Assembly: GCA_043808365.1 (NCBI GenBank)
Contig: JAZDEZ010000015.1
Span: 20,683 to 84,682 of the forward strand
DNA length: 64,000 nucleotides
Reading direction: 5' to 3'
Origin: Patescibacteria group bacterium
Lineage (GTDB): Bacteria; Patescibacteriota; Patescibacteriia; UBA10025; JAHIVO01
In this document: in pieces, positions 7,807-61,536 of the stretch
How positions within the stretch are numbered: position 1 is the stretch's first letter
Layout: the number at the start of each line of letters is the position of its first letter
Made by a program: the position numbers and the translations under genes
Notes under the pieces: generated by a model
The model's database searches: none
Told to the model about the DNA's origin: nothing
What the model saw: the letters and a program-made list of their open reading frames with translations, nothing else

Positions 7807-7871
7807 TTTTCTCAAAATTTTGAGCCATGCGACGGCGAAAAAGTTTCGGCAGAAAAATTATCCCGAGGAAC

Positions 7872-7954
7872 ATTGTGACGAGGGATCTCACACATTTCCA
7901 GTACCGAGATTGCCACGTCCCCCCAGGGCTCCGCTCGGGGTCCTCGCAATGACA
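7872..7954 (-). repeat. Copy R1 of the GTCATTGCGAGG...GGCAATCTCGGT MITE-like dispersed repeat.
   Basis: Its reverse complement aligns with the 25710-25836 copy (GTCATTGCGAGGA ... GACGTGGCAATCTCGGT). Confidence 0.4.
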
Positions 7955-16440: not shown

Positions 16441-16572
16441 ACATCTGGAAATTTTCGGGCTGAAACGGAGTCAGCGGGAAATTCCCGTATTAACACATTC
16501 TAACATTCTTAAGAATGTTCAAATTTAAATTTACCTCCGAAGATTCGCGCGAACGATTCCATATGGATAGCC

Positions 16573-16802
16573 GCGCACCCAGGGACGGGTGCGCTTGGCA
16601 GAAACAAAAAATCCTATCTCACACTTCTCGCTTCCCGCTTCCCGACTCGCATCCCACATCTGAAACTCACCTCCAACCTCCAACTTCCTATCTAATATCT
16701 CCCCCTACGGGGGATCTCCCGAAGGGAGATAATAACTTACACCCAACAACCAATCTCCTCGCTAACCACTAATTACTAGTGGCTAACAACTAGCGACTAA
16801 CA
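16573..16802 (+). repeat. Copy A of a ~190-230-nt pyrimidine-rich intergenic element: a 5' GC hairpin, CCUCC-containing repeats, and a stop-codon-rich tail.
   Basis: GCGCACCCAGGGACGGGTGCGC hairpin, then ATCCTATCTCACAC...CACCTCCAACCTCCAACTTCC...ACTAATTACTAGTGGCTAACAACTAGC. It aligns with the copy at 28520-28688. Confidence 0.5.
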
Positions 16803-19860: not shown

Positions 19861-19942
19861 GTCATTGCGAGGAGTGGAACGACGAAGCAATCTGGCCTGC
19901 AAGACTATCCCGAACAGAGCCGAGGAATCCCTCAGTAGATAC
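19861..19942 (+). repeat. Copy R2 of the GTCATTGCGAGGAG MITE-like repeat.
   Basis: GTCATTGCGAGGAGTGGAACGACGAAGCAATCT ... GAATCCCTCAGTAGATAC. Confidence 0.4.
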
Positions 19943-20125
19943 TATAAAACCCTTCACTGAGCTCGGGATGAAGGCTGTGCCCGCGGCGGTATGAATAAAT
20001 GCACGCGCAACCACGGCGGGTTGCGCTCCGAGGGTAATAAAAATCGGGGCGGCGCTATTGCCATCCTTCTGAAACCAACCTCTGACTTCCTGACTAATTT
20101 CTAACAACTAAAAACTAACTACTAA

Positions 20126-21424
20126 TTACTTATTACTAATTACTGAACCATACACCGGATGCTTTTCTGTGAGTTCTTTTACTTTTTTCCTCACCTCTTC
20201 TTTGGCTGATTCTTTTTGTGGGTTATGGATAGTCTCGGCAATCACGTCTGCCACGACTTTCATGTCTTCTTCCGTAAAACCGCGAGTGGTCAATGCCGGC
20301 GTGCCCAACCGGATGCCAGACGGGTCCATCGGCTTACGCGGGTCGAATGGCACGGTATTCTTATTGACCGTAATCCCCACTTCATCCAGTAGGGTCTCAG
20401 CTTCCTGGCCGGTTATGTTCTTGTTGGTTAAATCAACTAATAATAAATGGTTGTCCGTGCCGCCGGTGATCAGCTTGAAATCATGCGCCAAAAGCTGTTC
20501 GGCCAGCGCCTTGGCATTTTTGACAATTTGATGGCCGTACAGCTGAAAAGCCTTGGTTGACGCTTCTTTCAGCGCTACGGCAATGGCCGCGGTCTGATGG
20601 TTATGCGGCCCGCCTTGCAAGCCCGGGAATACTGCCCGGTCAATGAGTTCGGCTAAATTCCACTTTGACCCCGCGTGATATTTTTCCTTCAAACGATCCT
20701 CTTTTTTCGGGCATAAAATCATCGCTCCCCGCGGCCCGCGCAATGTCTTGTGCGTGGTCGTCATAATGACATCCGCATGATCAACGGGCGACTGGTGCGC
20801 GCCGGCAATCACCAACCCGGCCACATGGGAAATATCAGTCAGTAAATACGCTCCCACCTCGCGTGCTATCCGGCCGAACGCGGCAAAATCAAATTCACGC
20901 GGATACGCCGTCGCGCCGGCGATAATCATTTTCGGCCGCTCCTTTTTTGCCAGTTCCAGCACCTCTTCATAATTTATCAGTTGGGTTTCCTTGTCGACGC
21001 CATACGGCACTGAATGGTAGTACCGTCCGGAAAAATTCACTTTCCACCCGTGCGTCAGATGCCCGCCATGCGGCAGGCTCATGCCCATGACTTTGTCCCC
21101 CGGCTCCAGCAACGCGAAATACACCGCCTGGTTGGCCGGCGAACCGGAGTACGGCTGGACATTGGCGTGCTCCACGCCGAATAATTGCTTGGCGCGGTCA
21201 CGGGCGATATTCTCAATCACGTCAATAAATTCATTTCCGCCGTAATAGCGTTTGCCGGGATACCCTTCGGAATACTTGTTCGTGCCAATCCCGCCCAAAG
21301 CTTCGAGCACAGCCTTGGACACATAGTTTTCCGAAGGGATCATTTCCAAGCCGTCCTGCTGTCGTTTGAGTTCTTGGCTAATGGCCGAGAAAATCTCCGG
21401 ATCTTCTTTTTGTAATGGTTCCAT
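20126..21424 (-). CDS. glyA: Serine hydroxymethyltransferase.
   Basis: 432 aa. The PLP-lysine motif TTTHKTLRGPRG and HLTHG are present. Confidence 0.9.
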   Translation of the reverse strand: MEPLQKEDPEIFSAISQELKRQQDGLEMIPSENYVSKAVLEALGGIGTNKYSEGYPGKRYYGGNEFIDVIENIARDRAKQLFGVEHANVQPYSGSPANQAVYFALLEPGDKVMGMSLPHGGHLTHGWKVNFSGRYYHSVPYGVDKETQLINYEEVLELAKKERPKMIIAGATAYPREFDFAAFGRIAREVGAYLLTDISHVAGLVIAGAHQSPVDHADVIMTTTHKTLRGPRGAMILCPKKEDRLKEKYHAGSKWNLAELIDRAVFPGLQGGPHNHQTAAIAVALKEASTKAFQLYGHQIVKNAKALAEQLLAHDFKLITGGTDNHLLLVDLTNKNITGQEAETLLDEVGITVNKNTVPFDPRKPMDPSGIRLGTPALTTRGFTEEDMKVVADVIAETIHNPQKESAKEEVRKKVKELTEKHPVYGSVISNK

Positions 21425-25606: not shown

Positions 25607-25709
25607 ACGTTTTATTTAATTCCTCAAGCGTCAAACAACCATGAAAACATGACATAGAAGTATAGTAATGGTACGGTTTTAACGCCTCTCAGTCAACCGC
25701 CCCCACCAT

Positions 25710-25836
25710 GTCATTGCGAGGAGCGACCCTGAACTCGATTCAGGGGAGCGACGTGGCAATCTCGGTGCAGTCCAACCAACAAGATCCTCACGTCGTGTCG
25801 CCTCTTTTCATTCGGCGCCACTCCTCAGGATGACAC
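25710..25836 (+). repeat. Copy R3 (full length, ~127 nt) of the MITE-like repeat with imperfect terminal inverted repeats.
   Basis: Left end GTCATTGCGAGGAG, internal GACGTGGCAATCTCGGT and AAGATCCTCACGTCG, right end CACTCCTCAGGATGACAC (reverse complement GTGTCATCCTGAGGAGTG). Confidence 0.5.
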
Positions 25837-25852
25837 ATGGGGCGGTAAGAAT

Positions 25853-28438: not shown

Positions 28439-28519
28439 ACTAAGCTATTCCACTGTTCACGTCAAGTCTAGATAGGCAAAAGGATTTTCCGATGGCGTGC
28501 TTTTTTATTAAAAATAGTC

Positions 28520-28688
28520 GCGCACCCAGAGACAGGTGCGCTCGGAGGATATTCATTATCCTACCTCACCCATCTGAATCCAACATCCAACCACTAACTT
28601 CCTAACCAACTTCTTACCCTCCCCCTTATAGCTCCCATAGCTCTTCTATCCCCACTAACTACTAACCTACTAATGGCTAGCTACTAGC
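28520..28688 (+). repeat. Copy B of the pyrimidine-rich intergenic element. Its tail overlaps the last codons of Elp3.
   Basis: GCGCACCCAGAGACAGGTGCGC hairpin after a T-run, then ATCCTACCTCACCC...CATCCAACCACTAACTTCC...CTAATGGCTAGCTACTAGC, collinear with copy A. Confidence 0.5.
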
Positions 28689-32409: not shown

Positions 32410-33071
32410 TTAAGGCGATCGCTTTCGACCTCGACGGCGTCCTGATTGACTCCGAGCCGCTTTGGGAACGATCGACATGGGAGTATGTAAAAAATAAATG
32501 CGGAACGACGCACCGGCGCCAATTCCGGTCACGCGACCTTGACCGGGAAGTCCGCGGCCGTACCCAGCGGTACATCAGCACGTATCTCAAGCGACACCTA
32601 TCGTTACCCGACTCGCCCCAGCAAATCGTAAAGGACAGGCTTCAGATGCTTTTTGACCTTTTTAACAAACGCCTGACAATGGCCCCGGGCGGCCTGGCAC
32701 TCTTGAAATTATTGAAAAAGAGTAAATACCCAGTAATTCTCGCCTCGTCATCCCCGCGACGGGTAATTGACTTCGTCATGCGTCGTTTCCTGTTAAAAAA
32801 ATATTTTGTAAAAATTATATCTGGGGATGACATGAAATACAGCAAGCCGCATCCTTGGGTGTATAAGCAAGCCGCGAAAATCTTGCACGTCAAACCTGCC
32901 GAAATGCTAGTCATTGAGGACTCGATCAGCGGCGTCCAGGCCGGTCTGAAATCCGGGGCAAGAGTCATTGCCATGAAAAAGCCTTACACGCCCAAAAAAT
33001 ATACCAAAGACGCGATACGCGTGATTAAAAGCCTCAATCAACTCTCGCTTGAACAAATTCAACGCCTTTAA
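32406..33071 (+). CDS. HAD-superfamily hydrolase (beta-phosphoglucomutase-like subfamily).
   Basis: Motif I AIAFDLDGVLIDSE, and the later motifs (ASSS, K...EDSISG). It overlaps the previous gene by ATGA. Confidence 0.7.
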   Translation: MIKAIAFDLDGVLIDSEPLWERSTWEYVKNKCGTTHRRQFRSRDLDREVRGRTQRYISTYLKRHLSLPDSPQQIVKDRLQMLFDLFNKRLTMAPGGLALLKLLKKSKYPVILASSSPRRVIDFVMRRFLLKKYFVKIISGDDMKYSKPHPWVYKQAAKILHVKPAEMLVIEDSISGVQAGLKSGARVIAMKKPYTPKKYTKDAIRVIKSLNQLSLEQIQRL

Positions 33072-33188
33072 CAATTCCAACATCTTCAACGTCATAAACA
33101 GTTTCAACAATTTGAACGGTTTCAACATCTTCAACATTTTCTTCCCACTAACTACTAATGGCTAACTTACTAATTACTAACTAACTAG
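33072..33188 (+). repeat. Partial copy C of the pyrimidine-rich element (CAACATCTTCAAC repeats plus stop-rich tail).
   Basis: TCCAACATCTTCAACGTCAT...TTCAACATCTTCAAC...CCCACTAACTACTAATGGCTAACTTACTAATTACTAACTAACTAGCC, ending immediately before the murI ATG. Confidence 0.35.
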
Positions 33189-47138: not shown

Positions 47139-47305
47139 GTTTTAGCCTGATTCGAGCAAATAATTGATTCATCCCCAACCTTAGCTATTTTCCGGTGAAA
47201 ATGGCACTAAAATCAAGAATCCTCAATATAATTAAAAAACAGATACCAACAGGATATCCACATGGTTAATGACCAATTGACCAAACCCCAATATCCAATT
47301 TTTAT

Positions 47306-48079: not shown

Positions 48080-48466
48080 TCATCTGGGAAATAATGACTT
48101 TATCGGATGACTCCTGCGCTTGGTCTTCTTGAGTTGGCCCCAGGTCATCCAGCGATATTCTGTATGCTCTGGACTCAATCTTATTCGGCCTGAGGCGTAT
48201 GACGCTTCGGCAGTCATCTCCACTGACCATACATGACGGAATGGGATGGCGTATACATTGAGCAGTCTAGTATTTTTAACCTTTACGCCCGCCTCTTCAC
48301 CAGCCTCCCGCCGTATCGCTTGGAACGGCTGCTCGCCCAGCTTCATGCCGCCACCTGGTAAATCCCAATCACCCGGGCCGTCCGGATCAGTCGCACTCCT
48401 CTTCAAAATTAAATATTTACCGGCCTTTTTTATCAGGACGTGGATACCAATATTAAAGCCTTTCAT
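48080..48466 (-). CDS. NUDIX hydrolase (MutT-like).
   Basis: Nudix box GGGMKLGEQPFQAIRREAGEEAGV. Confidence 0.7.
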   Translation of the reverse strand: MKGFNIGIHVLIKKAGKYLILKRSATDPDGPGDWDLPGGGMKLGEQPFQAIRREAGEEAGVKVKNTRLLNVYAIPFRHVWSVEMTAEASYASGRIRLSPEHTEYRWMTWGQLKKTKRRSHPIKSLFPR

Positions 48467-48500
48467 ATGATTTCTTTATTGCTCATCTACAAAATACCTT

Positions 48501-48546
48501 GTCATTGCGAGGAGGCCGAGTGAACCGAGGCTGACGAAGCAATCTC
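48501..48546 (+). repeat. Copy R4 (short) of the MITE-like repeat, immediately 3' of the GIY-YIG gene.
   Basis: GTCATTGCGAGGAGGCCGAGTGAACCGAGGCTGACGAAGCAATCTC. Confidence 0.45.
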
Positions 48547-48853
48547 ATCGCTTTTTATCATGCCACTCTTCACTTAAATCATTCCATTCTGGGTTAATAC
48601 TATTTATTAAATTTATTTTCTTTTGTCTTGATCCTCCTTTAATCTGTTTTTCCCTGGCAATTGCATCCTCAATATATTGAAATTCCTCATAATACACCAA
48701 CTTGGTGATATTATACTTCTTAGTAAATCCACCAACTTGTTTTTGTTTATGTTGCAAAACTCGCCCCTCAAGTCCACCGCTGACTCCCGTATAAAGAGTA
48801 GTATGCGCTTTATTGGTCATGATGTAAACGCAATAACTGCGTTCGTAAGACAT
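48545..48853 (-). CDS. GIY-YIG nuclease superfamily protein (small stand-alone type).
   Basis: YCVYIMTNKAHTTLYTGVSGGLEGRVLQHK is the GIY...YIG...R...H hallmark. 102 aa. Confidence 0.75.
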   Translation of the reverse strand: MSYERSYCVYIMTNKAHTTLYTGVSGGLEGRVLQHKQKQVGGFTKKYNITKLVYYEEFQYIEDAIAREKQIKGGSRQKKINLINSINPEWNDLSEEWHDKKR

Positions 48854-48875
48854 AGATTGCGTTTCTTACTTAGTA

Positions 48876-48957
48876 GATTGCTTCGCTCCGCTCGCAATGA
48901 CAAAAAACATGTGTCATTGCGAGGAGGACGAGGTACGAGGACGACGAAGCAATCTCT
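48876..48957. repeat. Copies R5a (inverted, 48876-48902) and R5b (direct, 48914-48957) of the MITE-like repeat, immediately 5' of the GIY-YIG gene.
   Basis: AGATTGCTTCGCTCCGCTCGCAATGAC, then GTCATTGCGAGGAGGACGAGGTACGAGGACGACGAAGCAATCTC. Confidence 0.45.
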
Positions 48958-50265
48958 TTACTGTAACAACTCTTTCAAAATCACCGCATCGCTCCAATCA
49001 ACCAGCTTCCCGTTTTTCAAGGCCATCTTCGTTTCCCCACCCTTACCCGTCACAATTACAATATCGCCCGGCTGGGCCAACTCAATTGCCCTTTTTAATG
49101 CCTGTTTTCTGTCTAGAATCTTTTCCACTTTCCCACGCGCCATTTGCAACACGCCATCTGCCACCTCATTGATAATCGCCTGCGGATCCTCGTTATACGG
49201 ATCCTCATTCGTCACAATAATATGGTCAGTATATTCTGCGGCTAACCGGCCGAGGATCGGACGTTTCGCTTTGTCGCGGCCTCCGCCCTGCGAACCGAGG
49301 ACGGAAATTATTTTTTTCGGCTGGAAAGTTTTAAGGGTTTGGTATACCGCTTCAAGCGAGGCCGGTTCATGAGCGTAATCAACAAATACGCGGAAACCTT
49401 TATCATTCTTGATTTCTTCCATCCGGCCGGGTAGTCCAGTGACTTTTTCTAATGCAACTTTTATATGTCCAAGTTCTATATGCTGTGACATACCTACAGC
49501 GATGGCAGCTAAGGCATTGTATATATTAAATTTCCCCAACAATGGCAGCCGGAAGAGTACATGATTGACCGCGAACTCACTGCCTGTTTCACTAACCTTC
49601 ACCTGTTCACTAAAAACTACCTCCACATCGTCCGATAATGCAGGTGTGTCTACATGCAATCCATATGCCCACTGACCATCTGCGGCAGTCGCAAGAAATT
49701 TTGAACCTTCCGAATCATCAGAATTGGCCACAACAATTTTTTTAACCAAATGGCCATCAATAACTTTGCGGTAACCATGGGCCAGTTCCTTGAACAGGGA
49801 TAATTTTGCCGCCCGATAATTTTCAAAACTGCCATGCGACTCAATATGCTCCGGCGATAAGTTCGTGAAAACGGCTATGTCATAGTCAATCCCGACGTGG
49901 CGGTGTTGGCTGATGCCTTCGGACGAAGTTTCTATGACCGCATACTGGCATCCGGCTTTCACCATCTGCCGGAGCATTTTCTGGAGCTTGAACCGGCCGG
50001 GCATAGTCTGCTTCAGGTCATTTGACCATTCTCGCTCGGCTATTTTAAATAGTACTGTGGTAGTCAAGCCGACCTTGTACCCGGCGGATTCCAAAACTTT
50101 CGCAATTAAATAAGCCGTGGTGGACTTCCCTTTTGTGCCAGTCACGCCGATAATAATCATTTGCCGTGACGGGAAACCGTACAGCTCAGCGCCGATGTGG
50201 GCGAGCGCCAAATGGTACCAGTTTAATAATGATTGTGGGATGAATTTTTTAATCAGGGCTTTCAT
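48958..50265 (-). CDS. Mur ligase family protein (MurE/MurF-like UDP-MurNAc-peptide ligase without the N-terminal domain).
   Basis: ATP-binding IIGVTGTKGKSTTAYL, the central Mur ligase domain, and the C-terminal DIVIVTGKGGE motif. 435 aa. Confidence 0.65.
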   Translation of the reverse strand: MKALIKKFIPQSLLNWYHLALAHIGAELYGFPSRQMIIIGVTGTKGKSTTAYLIAKVLESAGYKVGLTTTVLFKIAEREWSNDLKQTMPGRFKLQKMLRQMVKAGCQYAVIETSSEGISQHRHVGIDYDIAVFTNLSPEHIESHGSFENYRAAKLSLFKELAHGYRKVIDGHLVKKIVVANSDDSEGSKFLATAADGQWAYGLHVDTPALSDDVEVVFSEQVKVSETGSEFAVNHVLFRLPLLGKFNIYNALAAIAVGMSQHIELGHIKVALEKVTGLPGRMEEIKNDKGFRVFVDYAHEPASLEAVYQTLKTFQPKKIISVLGSQGGGRDKAKRPILGRLAAEYTDHIIVTNEDPYNEDPQAIINEVADGVLQMARGKVEKILDRKQALKRAIELAQPGDIVIVTGKGGETKMALKNGKLVDWSDAVILKELLQ

Positions 50266-51073: not shown

Positions 51074-51127
51074 TTTTTTTCGTTTGTAAGTAAGTGTTGC
51101 GCCGCCCTTCTCCTTACTCTTTTTACT

Positions 51128-51226
51128 GTCATTGCGAGTGAAACGAAGCAATCTCTGCTATCTACTATTATAAGATCCTCACGTCGTTCCACTTCACTTC
51201 GTTCAGTGTCACTCCTCAGGATGACG
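51128..51226 (+). repeat. Copy R6 of the MITE-like repeat.
   Basis: GTCATTGCGAGTGAAACGAAGCAATCTCTG...AAGATCCTCACGTCG...CACTCCTCAGGATGACG. Confidence 0.5.
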
Positions 51227-51243
51227 CCAGGGGGCGGCGTCAC

Positions 51244-54061: not shown

Positions 54062-54248
54062 GTAAAAAATAAAAAAAATCTCCTATCAGATAAGAGATTA
54101 CTACAGAGAATTCACCTCTTATCTATCCCCCGCACCTTGAGGCGTGGGAGCTGGACTTAGCACCCGAACTTCGTCTTGTGCCCGAATGGGTTGCTGGAGT
54201 GTCAACGGCCCAGTTGCCTACACTCACTCTTGATAATTGGTTGGGTTG
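54062..54248 (-). ncRNA. SAM-I (S-box) riboswitch with a terminator expression platform, in the metK leader.
   Basis: Read on the minus strand: UUAUCAAGAG...CUGGGCC...AGCAACC...GGUGCUAAGUCCAGC...P4 hairpin...GAUAGAUAAGAGG, which follows the SAM-I consensus order. It is followed by the AATCTCTTATC-TGAT-AGGAGATT hairpin and U8. Confidence 0.65.
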
Positions 54249-59410: not shown

Positions 59411-59567
59411 TTATTGTAAAATTTCTTCAGCCAGAGGCTGATCCGCCTATGGCGGAAATGACGAATTTTTAATTTCTAATAAATTTCCAATTCCTGAATT
59501 TCTAATTGGACATTGAGTAATTGTGGCTTGATTAGAAATTAGTAATTAGGAATTGATAATTTACTTC

Positions 59568-60350: not shown

Positions 60351-60468
60351 AAGAATAATTTCTCAATTACCAATTTCCAATAACCAATGAATGATCCAAT
60401 GCTGTATGATTATTTGGAAATTGGAGTTTGGAATTTTATTGGATATTGGTAATTGGATACTTGGTAAT

Positions 60469-61536
60469 TTACCTAATAATCGCTTTCTGCGCCATTTTAT
60501 AAATGGTATACCAGACCGGGTCCAGGATCAAGTCAAAGGCGCCAAGGTAGGCCGCTCCGTACCCGCCGAACCCCTGCTTGAAACGGGTAATGCCGTCCCA
60601 AGGATGCGGCGCGTCATTGTCATGAGCCAGTGTCACTCCGCCAAAATCATATTTTTTATAACCGCGCTTCTTGGCCTCCTGGATCTGGCGCCATTGCAGC
60701 AGATGAGGGGCCATAACCTCGCGCCGCTCGTCCCCGGAAGCGCCATGCAGATACGTCACCGTGTCGCCAAAAAAAATCACTATATTGCCCGCCACGTTCT
60801 TGCCTTCATATTCGGCGGAAAAAAGCTGTAAAAAATTCTTGCCAGCGAGCGTCCGGTGCATGATCCGATAATAGTCATGCGAGTGCGTTCTGATTTTGTC
60901 CCGCTGAGCGGTCTGCGTAGTGAGTGAGAGAAACGCGTCGAAATCATTGACCGTTTCCACGGTCCGGATATGGACGCCCTTCCGTTCGGCGAGCTTGATG
61001 TTATAACGCGTCTTCGGATGCATGGCGGCCAGCAATTGCTCTTCCGACTGCCCTAAGTCCAGAAACCACGTTTGCGCCGGCTGAACCTGATCAACCTTCT
61101 TTATCTGCCAGCCCTGCGTGACCGTGGTTAATAGCGCTTCATTTGTCTTTTCCCAGGGTGGCTCAACCTTCAAAAACATGACGCCGTGGTTCTCCGCCTG
61201 GTCCATAATCGTTTCCAACAGACTCCTGACGGTAGCGCCGTATTTATCAACCGGCAAACGGTCATCGAGCATCGGTCCGCGCGGGATATACCAATATTTT
61301 TTTCCGAGCGGGAGCCGATGTTCGAACGCCTGCGCGGTACCGAGAATCGTCTGCCCGTCAAAGGCTCCCCACCGCCTGACCGGTCGCGGCACGGCACGCT
61401 GGAACTCGCCCCACCGCCAGGACTGCAAAAACTGACAACCTGTCCGGTTGCCGACAAATGAATCTAATTCATTTTGCTTTTCAATTTCCCTGACTTCCAT
61501 TAAAATAAATATAAAATATAAAAAATCAAATATCAA
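60469..61536 (-). CDS. FemAB-family peptidoglycan branch aminoacyltransferase.
   Basis: QFLQSWRWGEF is the hallmark FemABX N-terminus. The GNAT-like tandem fold length fits. The start is probably the internal Met at ~61500. Confidence 0.7.
   Translation of the reverse strand: MIFDFLYFIFILMEVREIEKQNELDSFVGNRTGCQFLQSWRWGEFQRAVPRPVRRWGAFDGQTILGTAQAFEHRLPLGKKYWYIPRGPMLDDRLPVDKYGATVRSLLETIMDQAENHGVMFLKVEPPWEKTNEALLTTVTQGWQIKKVDQVQPAQTWFLDLGQSEEQLLAAMHPKTRYNIKLAERKGVHIRTVETVNDFDAFLSLTTQTAQRDKIRTHSHDYYRIMHRTLAGKNFLQLFSAEYEGKNVAGNIVIFFGDTVTYLHGASGDERREVMAPHLLQWRQIQEAKKRGYKKYDFGGVTLAHDNDAPHPWDGITRFKQGFGGYGAAYLGAFDLILDPVWYTIYKMAQKAIIR

Follow-up and report, generated by a model that had tools for sequence, protein, structure and literature searches.

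A putative Ssn-type GIY-YIG nuclease gene and its flanking SRM-type repeats in a Patescibacteria genome

The Ssn family comprises site-specific nucleases of single-stranded DNA (ssDNA), its founding member being SsnA of Neisseria meningitidis, a 94-aa single-domain GIY-YIG protein assigned to CDD cd10448 (GIY-YIG_unchar_3) (Chenal et al., Nat Commun 2025, PMC11893778). SsnA binds the NTS hairpin repeat (CGTCATTCCCGCGMAVGCGGGAATCYRG) in ssDNA only and cuts just upstream of it, without acting on double-stranded DNA (dsDNA), RNA or the complementary strand and without binding RNA (PMC11893778). Homologous ssn genes across bacteria are typically flanked by their own cognate Ssn-related motifs (SRMs), and the enzymes of four species each cut their own motif (PMC11893778). 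In N. meningitidis the enzyme serves to restrict incoming transforming DNA that carries the repeats, and the hypothesis of an insertion sequence (IS)-like unit is already contained in the Discussion of the same paper (PMC11893778). Here we describe a 102-aa GIY-YIG nuclease gene with three SRM-type repeats around it in a Patescibacteria group bacterium, within a stretch of 64,000 nucleotides (contig JAZDEZ010000015.1 of assembly GCA_043808365.1, positions 20,683 to 84,682), referred to below as the 64-kb window.

We favour, with a probability of roughly 0.78, the interpretation that this gene encodes an Ssn-type enzyme and that the repeats beside it are its cognate sites. Membership of the Ssn family is suggested by homology to SsnA and by a conserved gene-repeat architecture, while specific cleavage of ssDNA next to the repeat and a function on single-stranded intermediates would follow by analogy with the Neisseria and Wolbachia enzymes. 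The protein would recognise the repeat in ssDNA and nick that strand a few nucleotides 5' of the motif, just ahead of GTCAT, the flanking repeats being its cognate SRMs and belonging to a widespread class, YGTCATTGCGAG-(7–71 nt)-CGAAGCAATCTC. Convergent copies would then direct two cuts outside the cassette, on opposite strands. The SRM-ssn-SRM unit, together with gene-less SRM doublets, would have been gained by insertion in this Patescibacteria lineage, and in the cell the system could, as in Neisseria, limit recombination of incoming repeat-bearing ssDNA.

The nuclease gene and the repeats beside it

The locus consists of the following features, with strands given relative to the window.

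48467..48957 (-): inserted block of 491 bp (three repeats plus gene) between the MurE stop and the NUDIX start, as delimited against the relatives L081, L084 and L085
48545..48853 (minus): ssn-like gene for a single-domain GIY-YIG nuclease of 102 aa (open reading frame (ORF), Pfam, SsnA homology, AlphaFold2 (AF2) model, composition)
48500..48546 (+): SRM-type repeat of type A (ATTGC stem), 3' of the gene and reversed relative to it, the final two bases overlapping the gene's stop codon
48875..48901 (-): short SRM-type repeat of type A, 21 nt upstream of the ATG and oriented as the gene
48912..48956 (+): SRM-type repeat of type A, outermost on the 5' side of the cassette, its end 1 nt short of the MurE stop codon

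The original prediction for this DNA, which had been made from the letters alone, claimed a 102-aa GIY-YIG gene, and this is borne out by the ORF and by a match to Pfam family PF01541 (residues 7–81, E 3.9e-14). It is the sole GIY-YIG gene of the window as judged by tblastn. As SsnA reference we used the 94-aa Neisseria gonorrhoeae orthologue (L089:1492-1773), which has NTS copies around it and stands in for N. meningitidis CAX49033.1; it was reached by tblastn in a 7.3-Gb database with an E value of 2e-15. Its source, together with the NTS flanks, is a pair of 2.17-Mb N. gonorrhoeae chromosomes (NZ_CP119140.1 and NZ_CP119142.1) that are catalogued as plasmids in PLSDB. BLASTP aligns the two proteins over their full length (42% identity over 92 aa, E 5e-25), within the limits applied to SsnA homologues in PMC11893778 (blastp E < 1e-10, coverage of at least 75%) with the gonococcal orthologue as reference, and comparison of profiles by hhalign gives a probability of 99.8%. 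Residues Y10 (GIY), Y21 (YIG), R31, H35 and E68 have their counterparts at the aligned positions of SsnA, and a C-terminal WxDL motif is common to both proteins. With 102 aa the protein falls within the size range of Ssn enzymes (about 94–150 aa, without an extra DNA-binding domain), and the AF2 model (predicted local distance difference test (pLDDT) score of 89) consists of one compact domain with the GIY-YIG fold. A search of NCBIfam with the protein returned no matching model.

The gene is a strong compositional outlier within its surroundings and has a foreign base composition. Its GC content is 35%, against a mean of 51.6 +/- 3.1% for the 44 long ORFs of the window, and at third codon positions (GC3) it is 32% against 61 +/- 6.7%.

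The three repeat copies around the gene, including an inverted one, had likewise been noted in the original prediction, with positions that agree with ours to within 1–2 nt. Read in the direction of the gene, a reverse and a forward copy come first, then the gene and a further reverse copy. Type A repeats (TGTCATTGCGAG...CGAAGCAATCTC) occur seven times in the 64 kb and are intergenic in every case, with 3 of the 7 lying within the 460-bp gene block; the copies found in the window are 27–54 nt long. Both conserved halves of the repeat are far commoner than expected by chance. For GTCATTGCGAGGAGG, with up to 3 mismatches, six matches were found where 1.8 are expected in the window (none of 100 shuffles reached six), and for GACGAAGCAATCTC, with up to 2 mismatches, six were found against an expectation of 0.47.

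Association of gene and repeat across phyla

An alignment of 36 homologues was used to collect 80 loci from species-representative genomes (Patescibacteria, Bacteroidota, Chloroflexota, Cyanobacteria, Nitrospirota, Planctomycetota, Acidobacteriota, Bacillota and others), and these were scanned with a generic hairpin pattern (GTC, a 5-nt stem, GA, an interior, the complementary stem and C). The pattern identified 311 SRM-type hairpins, against 6 in shuffled loci. Their density was 6.5 per kb at distances of up to 200 nt from the gene and only 0.16 per kb in the remaining flanks. At least one copy was present in 66 of 76 loci, copies on both sides in 50, and the layout forward repeat-gene-reverse repeat in 37. 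A second, independent set of 80 loci from metagenomes gave corresponding figures of 58, 48 and 42 out of 62, with 6.1 hairpins per kb near the gene against 0.26 elsewhere. Over these 160 homologous loci the enrichment beside the gene is thus 24–40-fold, and the commonest layout, forward repeat-gene-reverse repeat, is also the one found here, where the ssn gene has repeats within 500 bp on either side (one located 21 nt upstream of the ATG, another overlapping the stop codon). The association of the GIY-YIG gene with repeats, which the original prediction had put up for checking, is real and general, holding in both sets. One Gastranaerophilales genome (L038) carries two ssn paralogues (103-357 and 2472-2726) that are 2 kb apart.

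Enrichment of this order also bears on a more mundane possibility, namely that an ordinary repair nuclease (UPF0213/YhbQ/Slx1 type) lies by chance amid generic intergenic palindromes such as REP-like sequences or terminators. The nearest solved folds to the AF2 model are indeed UPF0213 BH0048 (1ZG2), Slx1 and the N-terminal domain of UvrC, and a search of the PDB found no Ssn structure, only distant UPF0213 and UvrC matches. These matches are weak, however (E 8e-7 with a profile, 24% identity), when set against the 42% identity and E 5e-25 obtained with SsnA; coincidence is ruled out by the repeat enrichment in 160 loci, and no terminator-like sites were found. We consider this explanation most improbable.

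The 552 copies collected yield a consensus in which YGTCATTGCGAG and CGAAGCAATCTC enclose a variable interior of 7–71 nt (median 19). Like the SRM/NTS repeats, for which a length of 20–50 nt is given, it has the form of an oriented imperfect palindrome with conserved non-palindromic ends (5' GTCAT, 3' AATCY), and these ends agree with those published for SRMs (5' HGTCWY, 3' RNCYNB). Stem variants are compensated across loci, ATTCT being paired with AGAAT in 14 of 14 cases and ATTAC with GTAAT in 14 of 16, while changes at the first stem position are uncompensated. The strongly conserved unpaired GAG and CGAAG bases suggest contacts with a protein. Proteins associated with the same repeat type are 64% identical, compared with 58% between types, a significant difference (reached by 1 of 1000 permutations) that is confounded by host phylogeny.

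Compensatory changes of this kind are also compatible with an RNA helix, and the repeats might therefore act in transcripts, as regulatory or stabilising structures to which the nuclease is incidental. The genes here all point the same way and are probably transcribed together, in which case the repeats would be transcribed as well. Against this, repeats are found in either orientation around the gene, SsnA shows no binding to RNA, and the conserved unpaired bases point to recognition by a protein. A scan of the whole window with Rfam at gathering thresholds found only a tRNA and an S-adenosylmethionine (SAM) riboswitch, and a permissive Rfam scan of 48400-49000 gave nothing but a chance miRNA match (E 0.39); the repeats therefore do not represent a known RNA family. 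A scan for terminators and promoters found no terminator and no T-run, the single promoter-like site being located inside the gene. A function at the RNA level is accordingly regarded as very unlikely. The riboswitch (RF00162, 55 bits; 54116-54239, minus strand) is located just upstream of an S-adenosylmethionine synthetase gene, which is the expected arrangement.

Insertion, gene-less doublets and the question of mobility

Relatives were found via Mur ligase orthologues and their contigs compared at the matching junctions. In three of them (L081, L084 and L085; MurE 79–87% identical) the gap between MurE and NUDIX is 4, 9 and 74 nt, and this junction contains neither a GIY-YIG gene nor an SRM. 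As the site is empty in three closer relatives, the 491-bp block is an insertion, unless it was precisely lost in each of them. In a more distant genome (L086; MurE 62% and NUDIX 61% identical) the same junction holds the cassette, with the same reverse-forward-gene-reverse layout, a nuclease 83% identical to the window protein and a 3' repeat that matches 48500-48546 at 46 of 47 nt, loop included. The presence or absence of the whole block among related genomes, which the original prediction had singled out as informative, is hence directly visible at one junction.

The remaining type A copies of the window are found away from the gene, in the arrangements listed here.

51128..51155 (+): type A repeat that opens a gene-less convergent doublet in a 170-bp spacer
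51174..51225 (-): type B repeat (GTCATCCTGAGGAG...CGACGTGAGGATCT; stem ATCCT) that completes the 51.1-kb doublet
25710..25763 (+): type A repeat whose inner stem is well paired, opening the 25.7-kb doublet (folding energy as DNA -11.5 kcal/mol, z -2.0)
25783..25834 (-): type B repeat that completes the 25.7-kb doublet (folding energy as DNA -10.2 kcal/mol, z -2.6)
19861..19894 (+): type A repeat; its partner at 19925-19974 is degenerate, with an ATCCC stem
7906..7953 (-): type A repeat, paired with a degenerate copy (ATCCC stem) at 7857-7889

Each of these four distant type A copies is followed after 15–30 nt by a hairpin of like design on the opposite strand and so forms a convergent doublet. 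Type B repeats have the stem ATCCT/AGGAT in place of ATTGC/GCAAT, and no nuclease gene that might be cognate to them was found in the window. Two of the doublets are bounded by GC-rich inverted ends (CCGCCCC...GGGGCGG; 25696-25714 with 25830-25846, and 51094-51109 with 51219-51243), which gives them the outline of miniature inverted-repeat transposable elements (MITEs) of 125–170 bp. The doublet at 51128-51225 is an insertion relative to the relatives, as L081 and L082 have just 1 nt between the matching stop and start codons. The gene block shares the convergent layout of the doublets, with the gene in the position of the spacer.

We dropped the statement that relatives are without any SRM: none occurs in the L081–L085 stretches compared, but L092 and L093 carry other SRM subtypes at other junctions. 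The repeats are therefore better described as dynamic than as merely present or absent. In L092 (MurE 85% identical) MurE is immediately followed by a solo symmetric repeat (CTTGTCATCGCGAGG...GAAGCAATGACAAG, at about 2590-2650), without a nuclease gene. This repeat, which is inverted with respect to the genes on either side, has a loop similar to that of the 48500-48546 copy and may represent either a footprint or an insertion of its own.

Several other repeats were noted in the window. A 62-nt repeat with a GC-rich hairpin (GCGCACCC...GGGTGCGC) occurs at 16567-16628 and 28514-28575 (76% identity between the two copies), and a tandem array with a 9-nt periodicity (AAC...TTC units) at 33052-33144. 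Low-complexity intergenic repeats rich in CCAAT, CTAAT or ACTAAT are found at 47264-47299, 60438-60473, 59457-59554, 20101-20144 and 16762-16791, and also in spacers of L085, L086 and L092.

A number of observations weigh against the interpretation as an Ssn enzyme with cognate repeats gained by insertion. Activity and specificity would have to be preserved across a distance of 42% identity to the SsnA orthologue. The pattern published for SRMs (HGTCWYN(0-2)YYVSBRHN(0-5)WNVSBRGN(0-2)RNCYNB) has no match in the window. The copies beside the gene are thermodynamically weak hairpins: as ssDNA, all three form a 5-bp ATTGC/GCAAT stem of -1.2 to -3.5 kcal/mol, no better than shuffles (z > 0), compared with -8.9 kcal/mol (z -3.5) for the gonococcal NTS, and good folding is limited to window copies with an inner stem (z -2.0 at 25710, z -2.6 at 25783). 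For the small set of genomes sampled, a history of gains at the MurE junction is about as parsimonious as one of losses. Identity between the window and L086 at four-fold synonymous sites is higher in the cassette gene (0.65, n = 26) than in the flanking genes (0.37; Fisher p 0.009), a point in favour of insertion, but this is a comparison of 26 sites, and the low GC3 of both copies raises chance identity. Finally, in Chryseobacterium the cassette is found at one orthologous site in several species (L019, L051 and L074, and on its upstream side in L054); there it is a stable, vertically inherited resident and not generally on the move.

The Ssn interpretation can be extended by assuming an autonomous selfish element, in which the nuclease itself spreads the SRM-ssn-SRM cassette and the gene-less doublets in a manner comparable to RAYT and REPIN. 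Such an extension is attractive in that the cassette and one doublet are both insertions relative to relatives, the cassette has the convergent layout of the doublets as if the gene had come to occupy their spacer, the gene is of foreign composition, and the L086 cassette is better conserved than its flanks. Homologous proteins are 60–70% identical across very distant phyla, and the authors of the Ssn study put forward the same hypothesis (PMC11893778). On the other hand, neither a target-site duplication nor a conserved insertion site is visible at the cassette or the doublet insertion, the window has a single copy of the gene, the position in Chryseobacterium is stable, and the empty sites of the relatives have no pre-existing SRM into which the element could home. 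Moreover, a GIY-YIG nuclease makes simple nicks, and we know of no strand-transfer chemistry in the GIY-YIG superfamily. The extension is possible, but we hold it to be rather unlikely.

Slightly more doubtful still is its strongest version, an actively mobile element with a mechanism of a new type, in which a minimal GIY-YIG ssDNA nickase promotes copying into new intergenic sites and across phyla. The nickase would act at hairpins exposed during replication or DNA uptake, the gene-less SRM doublets would be the MITEs of the cassette, and the present locus, with two lineages that have the cassette and three closer ones that lack it, would reflect a recent event.

The compact mobile cassette envisaged in the original prediction is therefore upheld only in part. 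The block is present or absent among relatives, a gene-less doublet has been inserted and the composition is foreign; no target-site duplication accompanies this, however, and residence in Chryseobacterium is stable. Of the traits of MITEs and IS elements, inverted ends and variable presence between genomes were observed, and no transposase is present. Close homologues occupy unrelated gene neighbourhoods, with the MurE/NUDIX context recurring in none of the 80 metagenome loci, and an exact metagenome scan for the 3' repeat of the cassette with its specific loop found nothing.

A homing-endonuclease-like unit had been proposed as well. A homing endonuclease of the classical free-standing kind (phage Seg/Mob, I-TevI), which would cut the dsDNA of an empty allele and enter it through repair copying, would account for a GIY-YIG catalytic domain and for presence and absence at one locus that is also occupied in a more distant genome. 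But the protein of 102 aa consists of the nuclease domain only, with neither a linker nor a DNA-binding domain, its closest characterised relative does not cut dsDNA, and there is no intron or phage context. None of 50,697 phage records matched, and among 2.9 million viral contigs of IMG/VR there were only two matching loci, so that a phage vector appears unlikely and the classical homing reading has to be abandoned as extremely improbable.

The Ssn family was described only in 2025, and the locus is a clean natural example bearing on the mobility of the repeat-gene-repeat unit: one junction is filled here and in a more distant genome and empty in three close relatives, with a gene-less doublet inserted nearby. 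Should the mobile-element reading be true, the locus could be used to reconstruct the mechanism.

Comparison with described systems

The architecture is reminiscent of repetitive extragenic palindromic (REP) sequences, their doublets (REPINs) and the REP-associated tyrosine transposases (RAYTs). RAYTs are domesticated HUH transposases of the IS200/IS605 type; they have REPs on either side and bring about the spread of REP doublets. Both systems have a single-copy nuclease gene between inverted copies of a hairpin repeat whose other copies are dispersed between genes, frequently as convergent doublets, and a hairpin in ssDNA as substrate can be counted as a further shared feature if the present enzyme behaves like its Ssn homologues. 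The likeness ends with the architecture, as RAYT is an HUH (Y1) transposase whereas the present protein belongs to the GIY-YIG type, from which covalent strand transfer is not expected.

GIY-YIG homing endonucleases (I-TevI; SegA-G of phage T4) share the catalytic domain and the presence or absence of the gene between related genomes. They differ in size (200–250 aa), in a C-terminal DNA-binding domain, in cutting dsDNA and in their phage or intron life, none of these features being found here. Proteins of the UPF0213/YhbQ/Slx1 group have the same fold and a similar size, with a distant sequence relation only, and to our knowledge no association with flanking repeats has been reported for them.

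The closest match is the Ssn family, which the original prediction had overlooked as an already published system of nucleases and SRM repeats. As here, Ssn enzymes are single-domain GIY-YIG proteins of about 100 aa whose gene is flanked on both sides, and the SRM/NTS repeats are short, imperfect, multi-copy intergenic palindromes that start with (Y)GTCAT and end with AATCYN. The core of the repeat is different, with ATTGCGAG...CGAAGCAAT here (a 5-bp stem, conserved unpaired bases and an insert of 7–71 nt) compared with ATTCCCGCG...CGCGGGAAT in Neisseria. A literature search for the repeat sequence retrieved unrelated primers only. The host is also distinct, being a genome of the Patescibacteria (candidate phyla radiation, CPR), a group absent from the main text of PMC11893778.

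When applied to the 80 homologous genome loci, the published pattern gave 9 matches, all of the Neisseria type and several of them doublets unconnected to a gene. Such pattern-matching NTS doublets (CGTCATTCCCGCG...GCGGGAATCCAG) were seen in L024 (6587-6654), L033 (1486-1565) and L080 (1575-1654), which are unrelated bacteria, in each case a few kb from an ATTGC-type ssn gene, suggesting that two repeat classes coexist within one genome. The class YGTCATTGCGAG...CGAAGCAATCTC is found in at least a dozen phyla and is missed by the published pattern, so that surveys which use this pattern under-count Ssn-repeat pairs. For enzyme engineering, the locus may offer a candidate cognate pair of enzyme and site with a specificity unlike those assayed to date.

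The element described here is most likely a member of the already published system of Ssn nucleases and SRM repeats and not of a new kind. What it adds to that system are junctions that are filled in some genomes and empty in others, an inserted doublet, and a widespread class of repeats beyond the published pattern.

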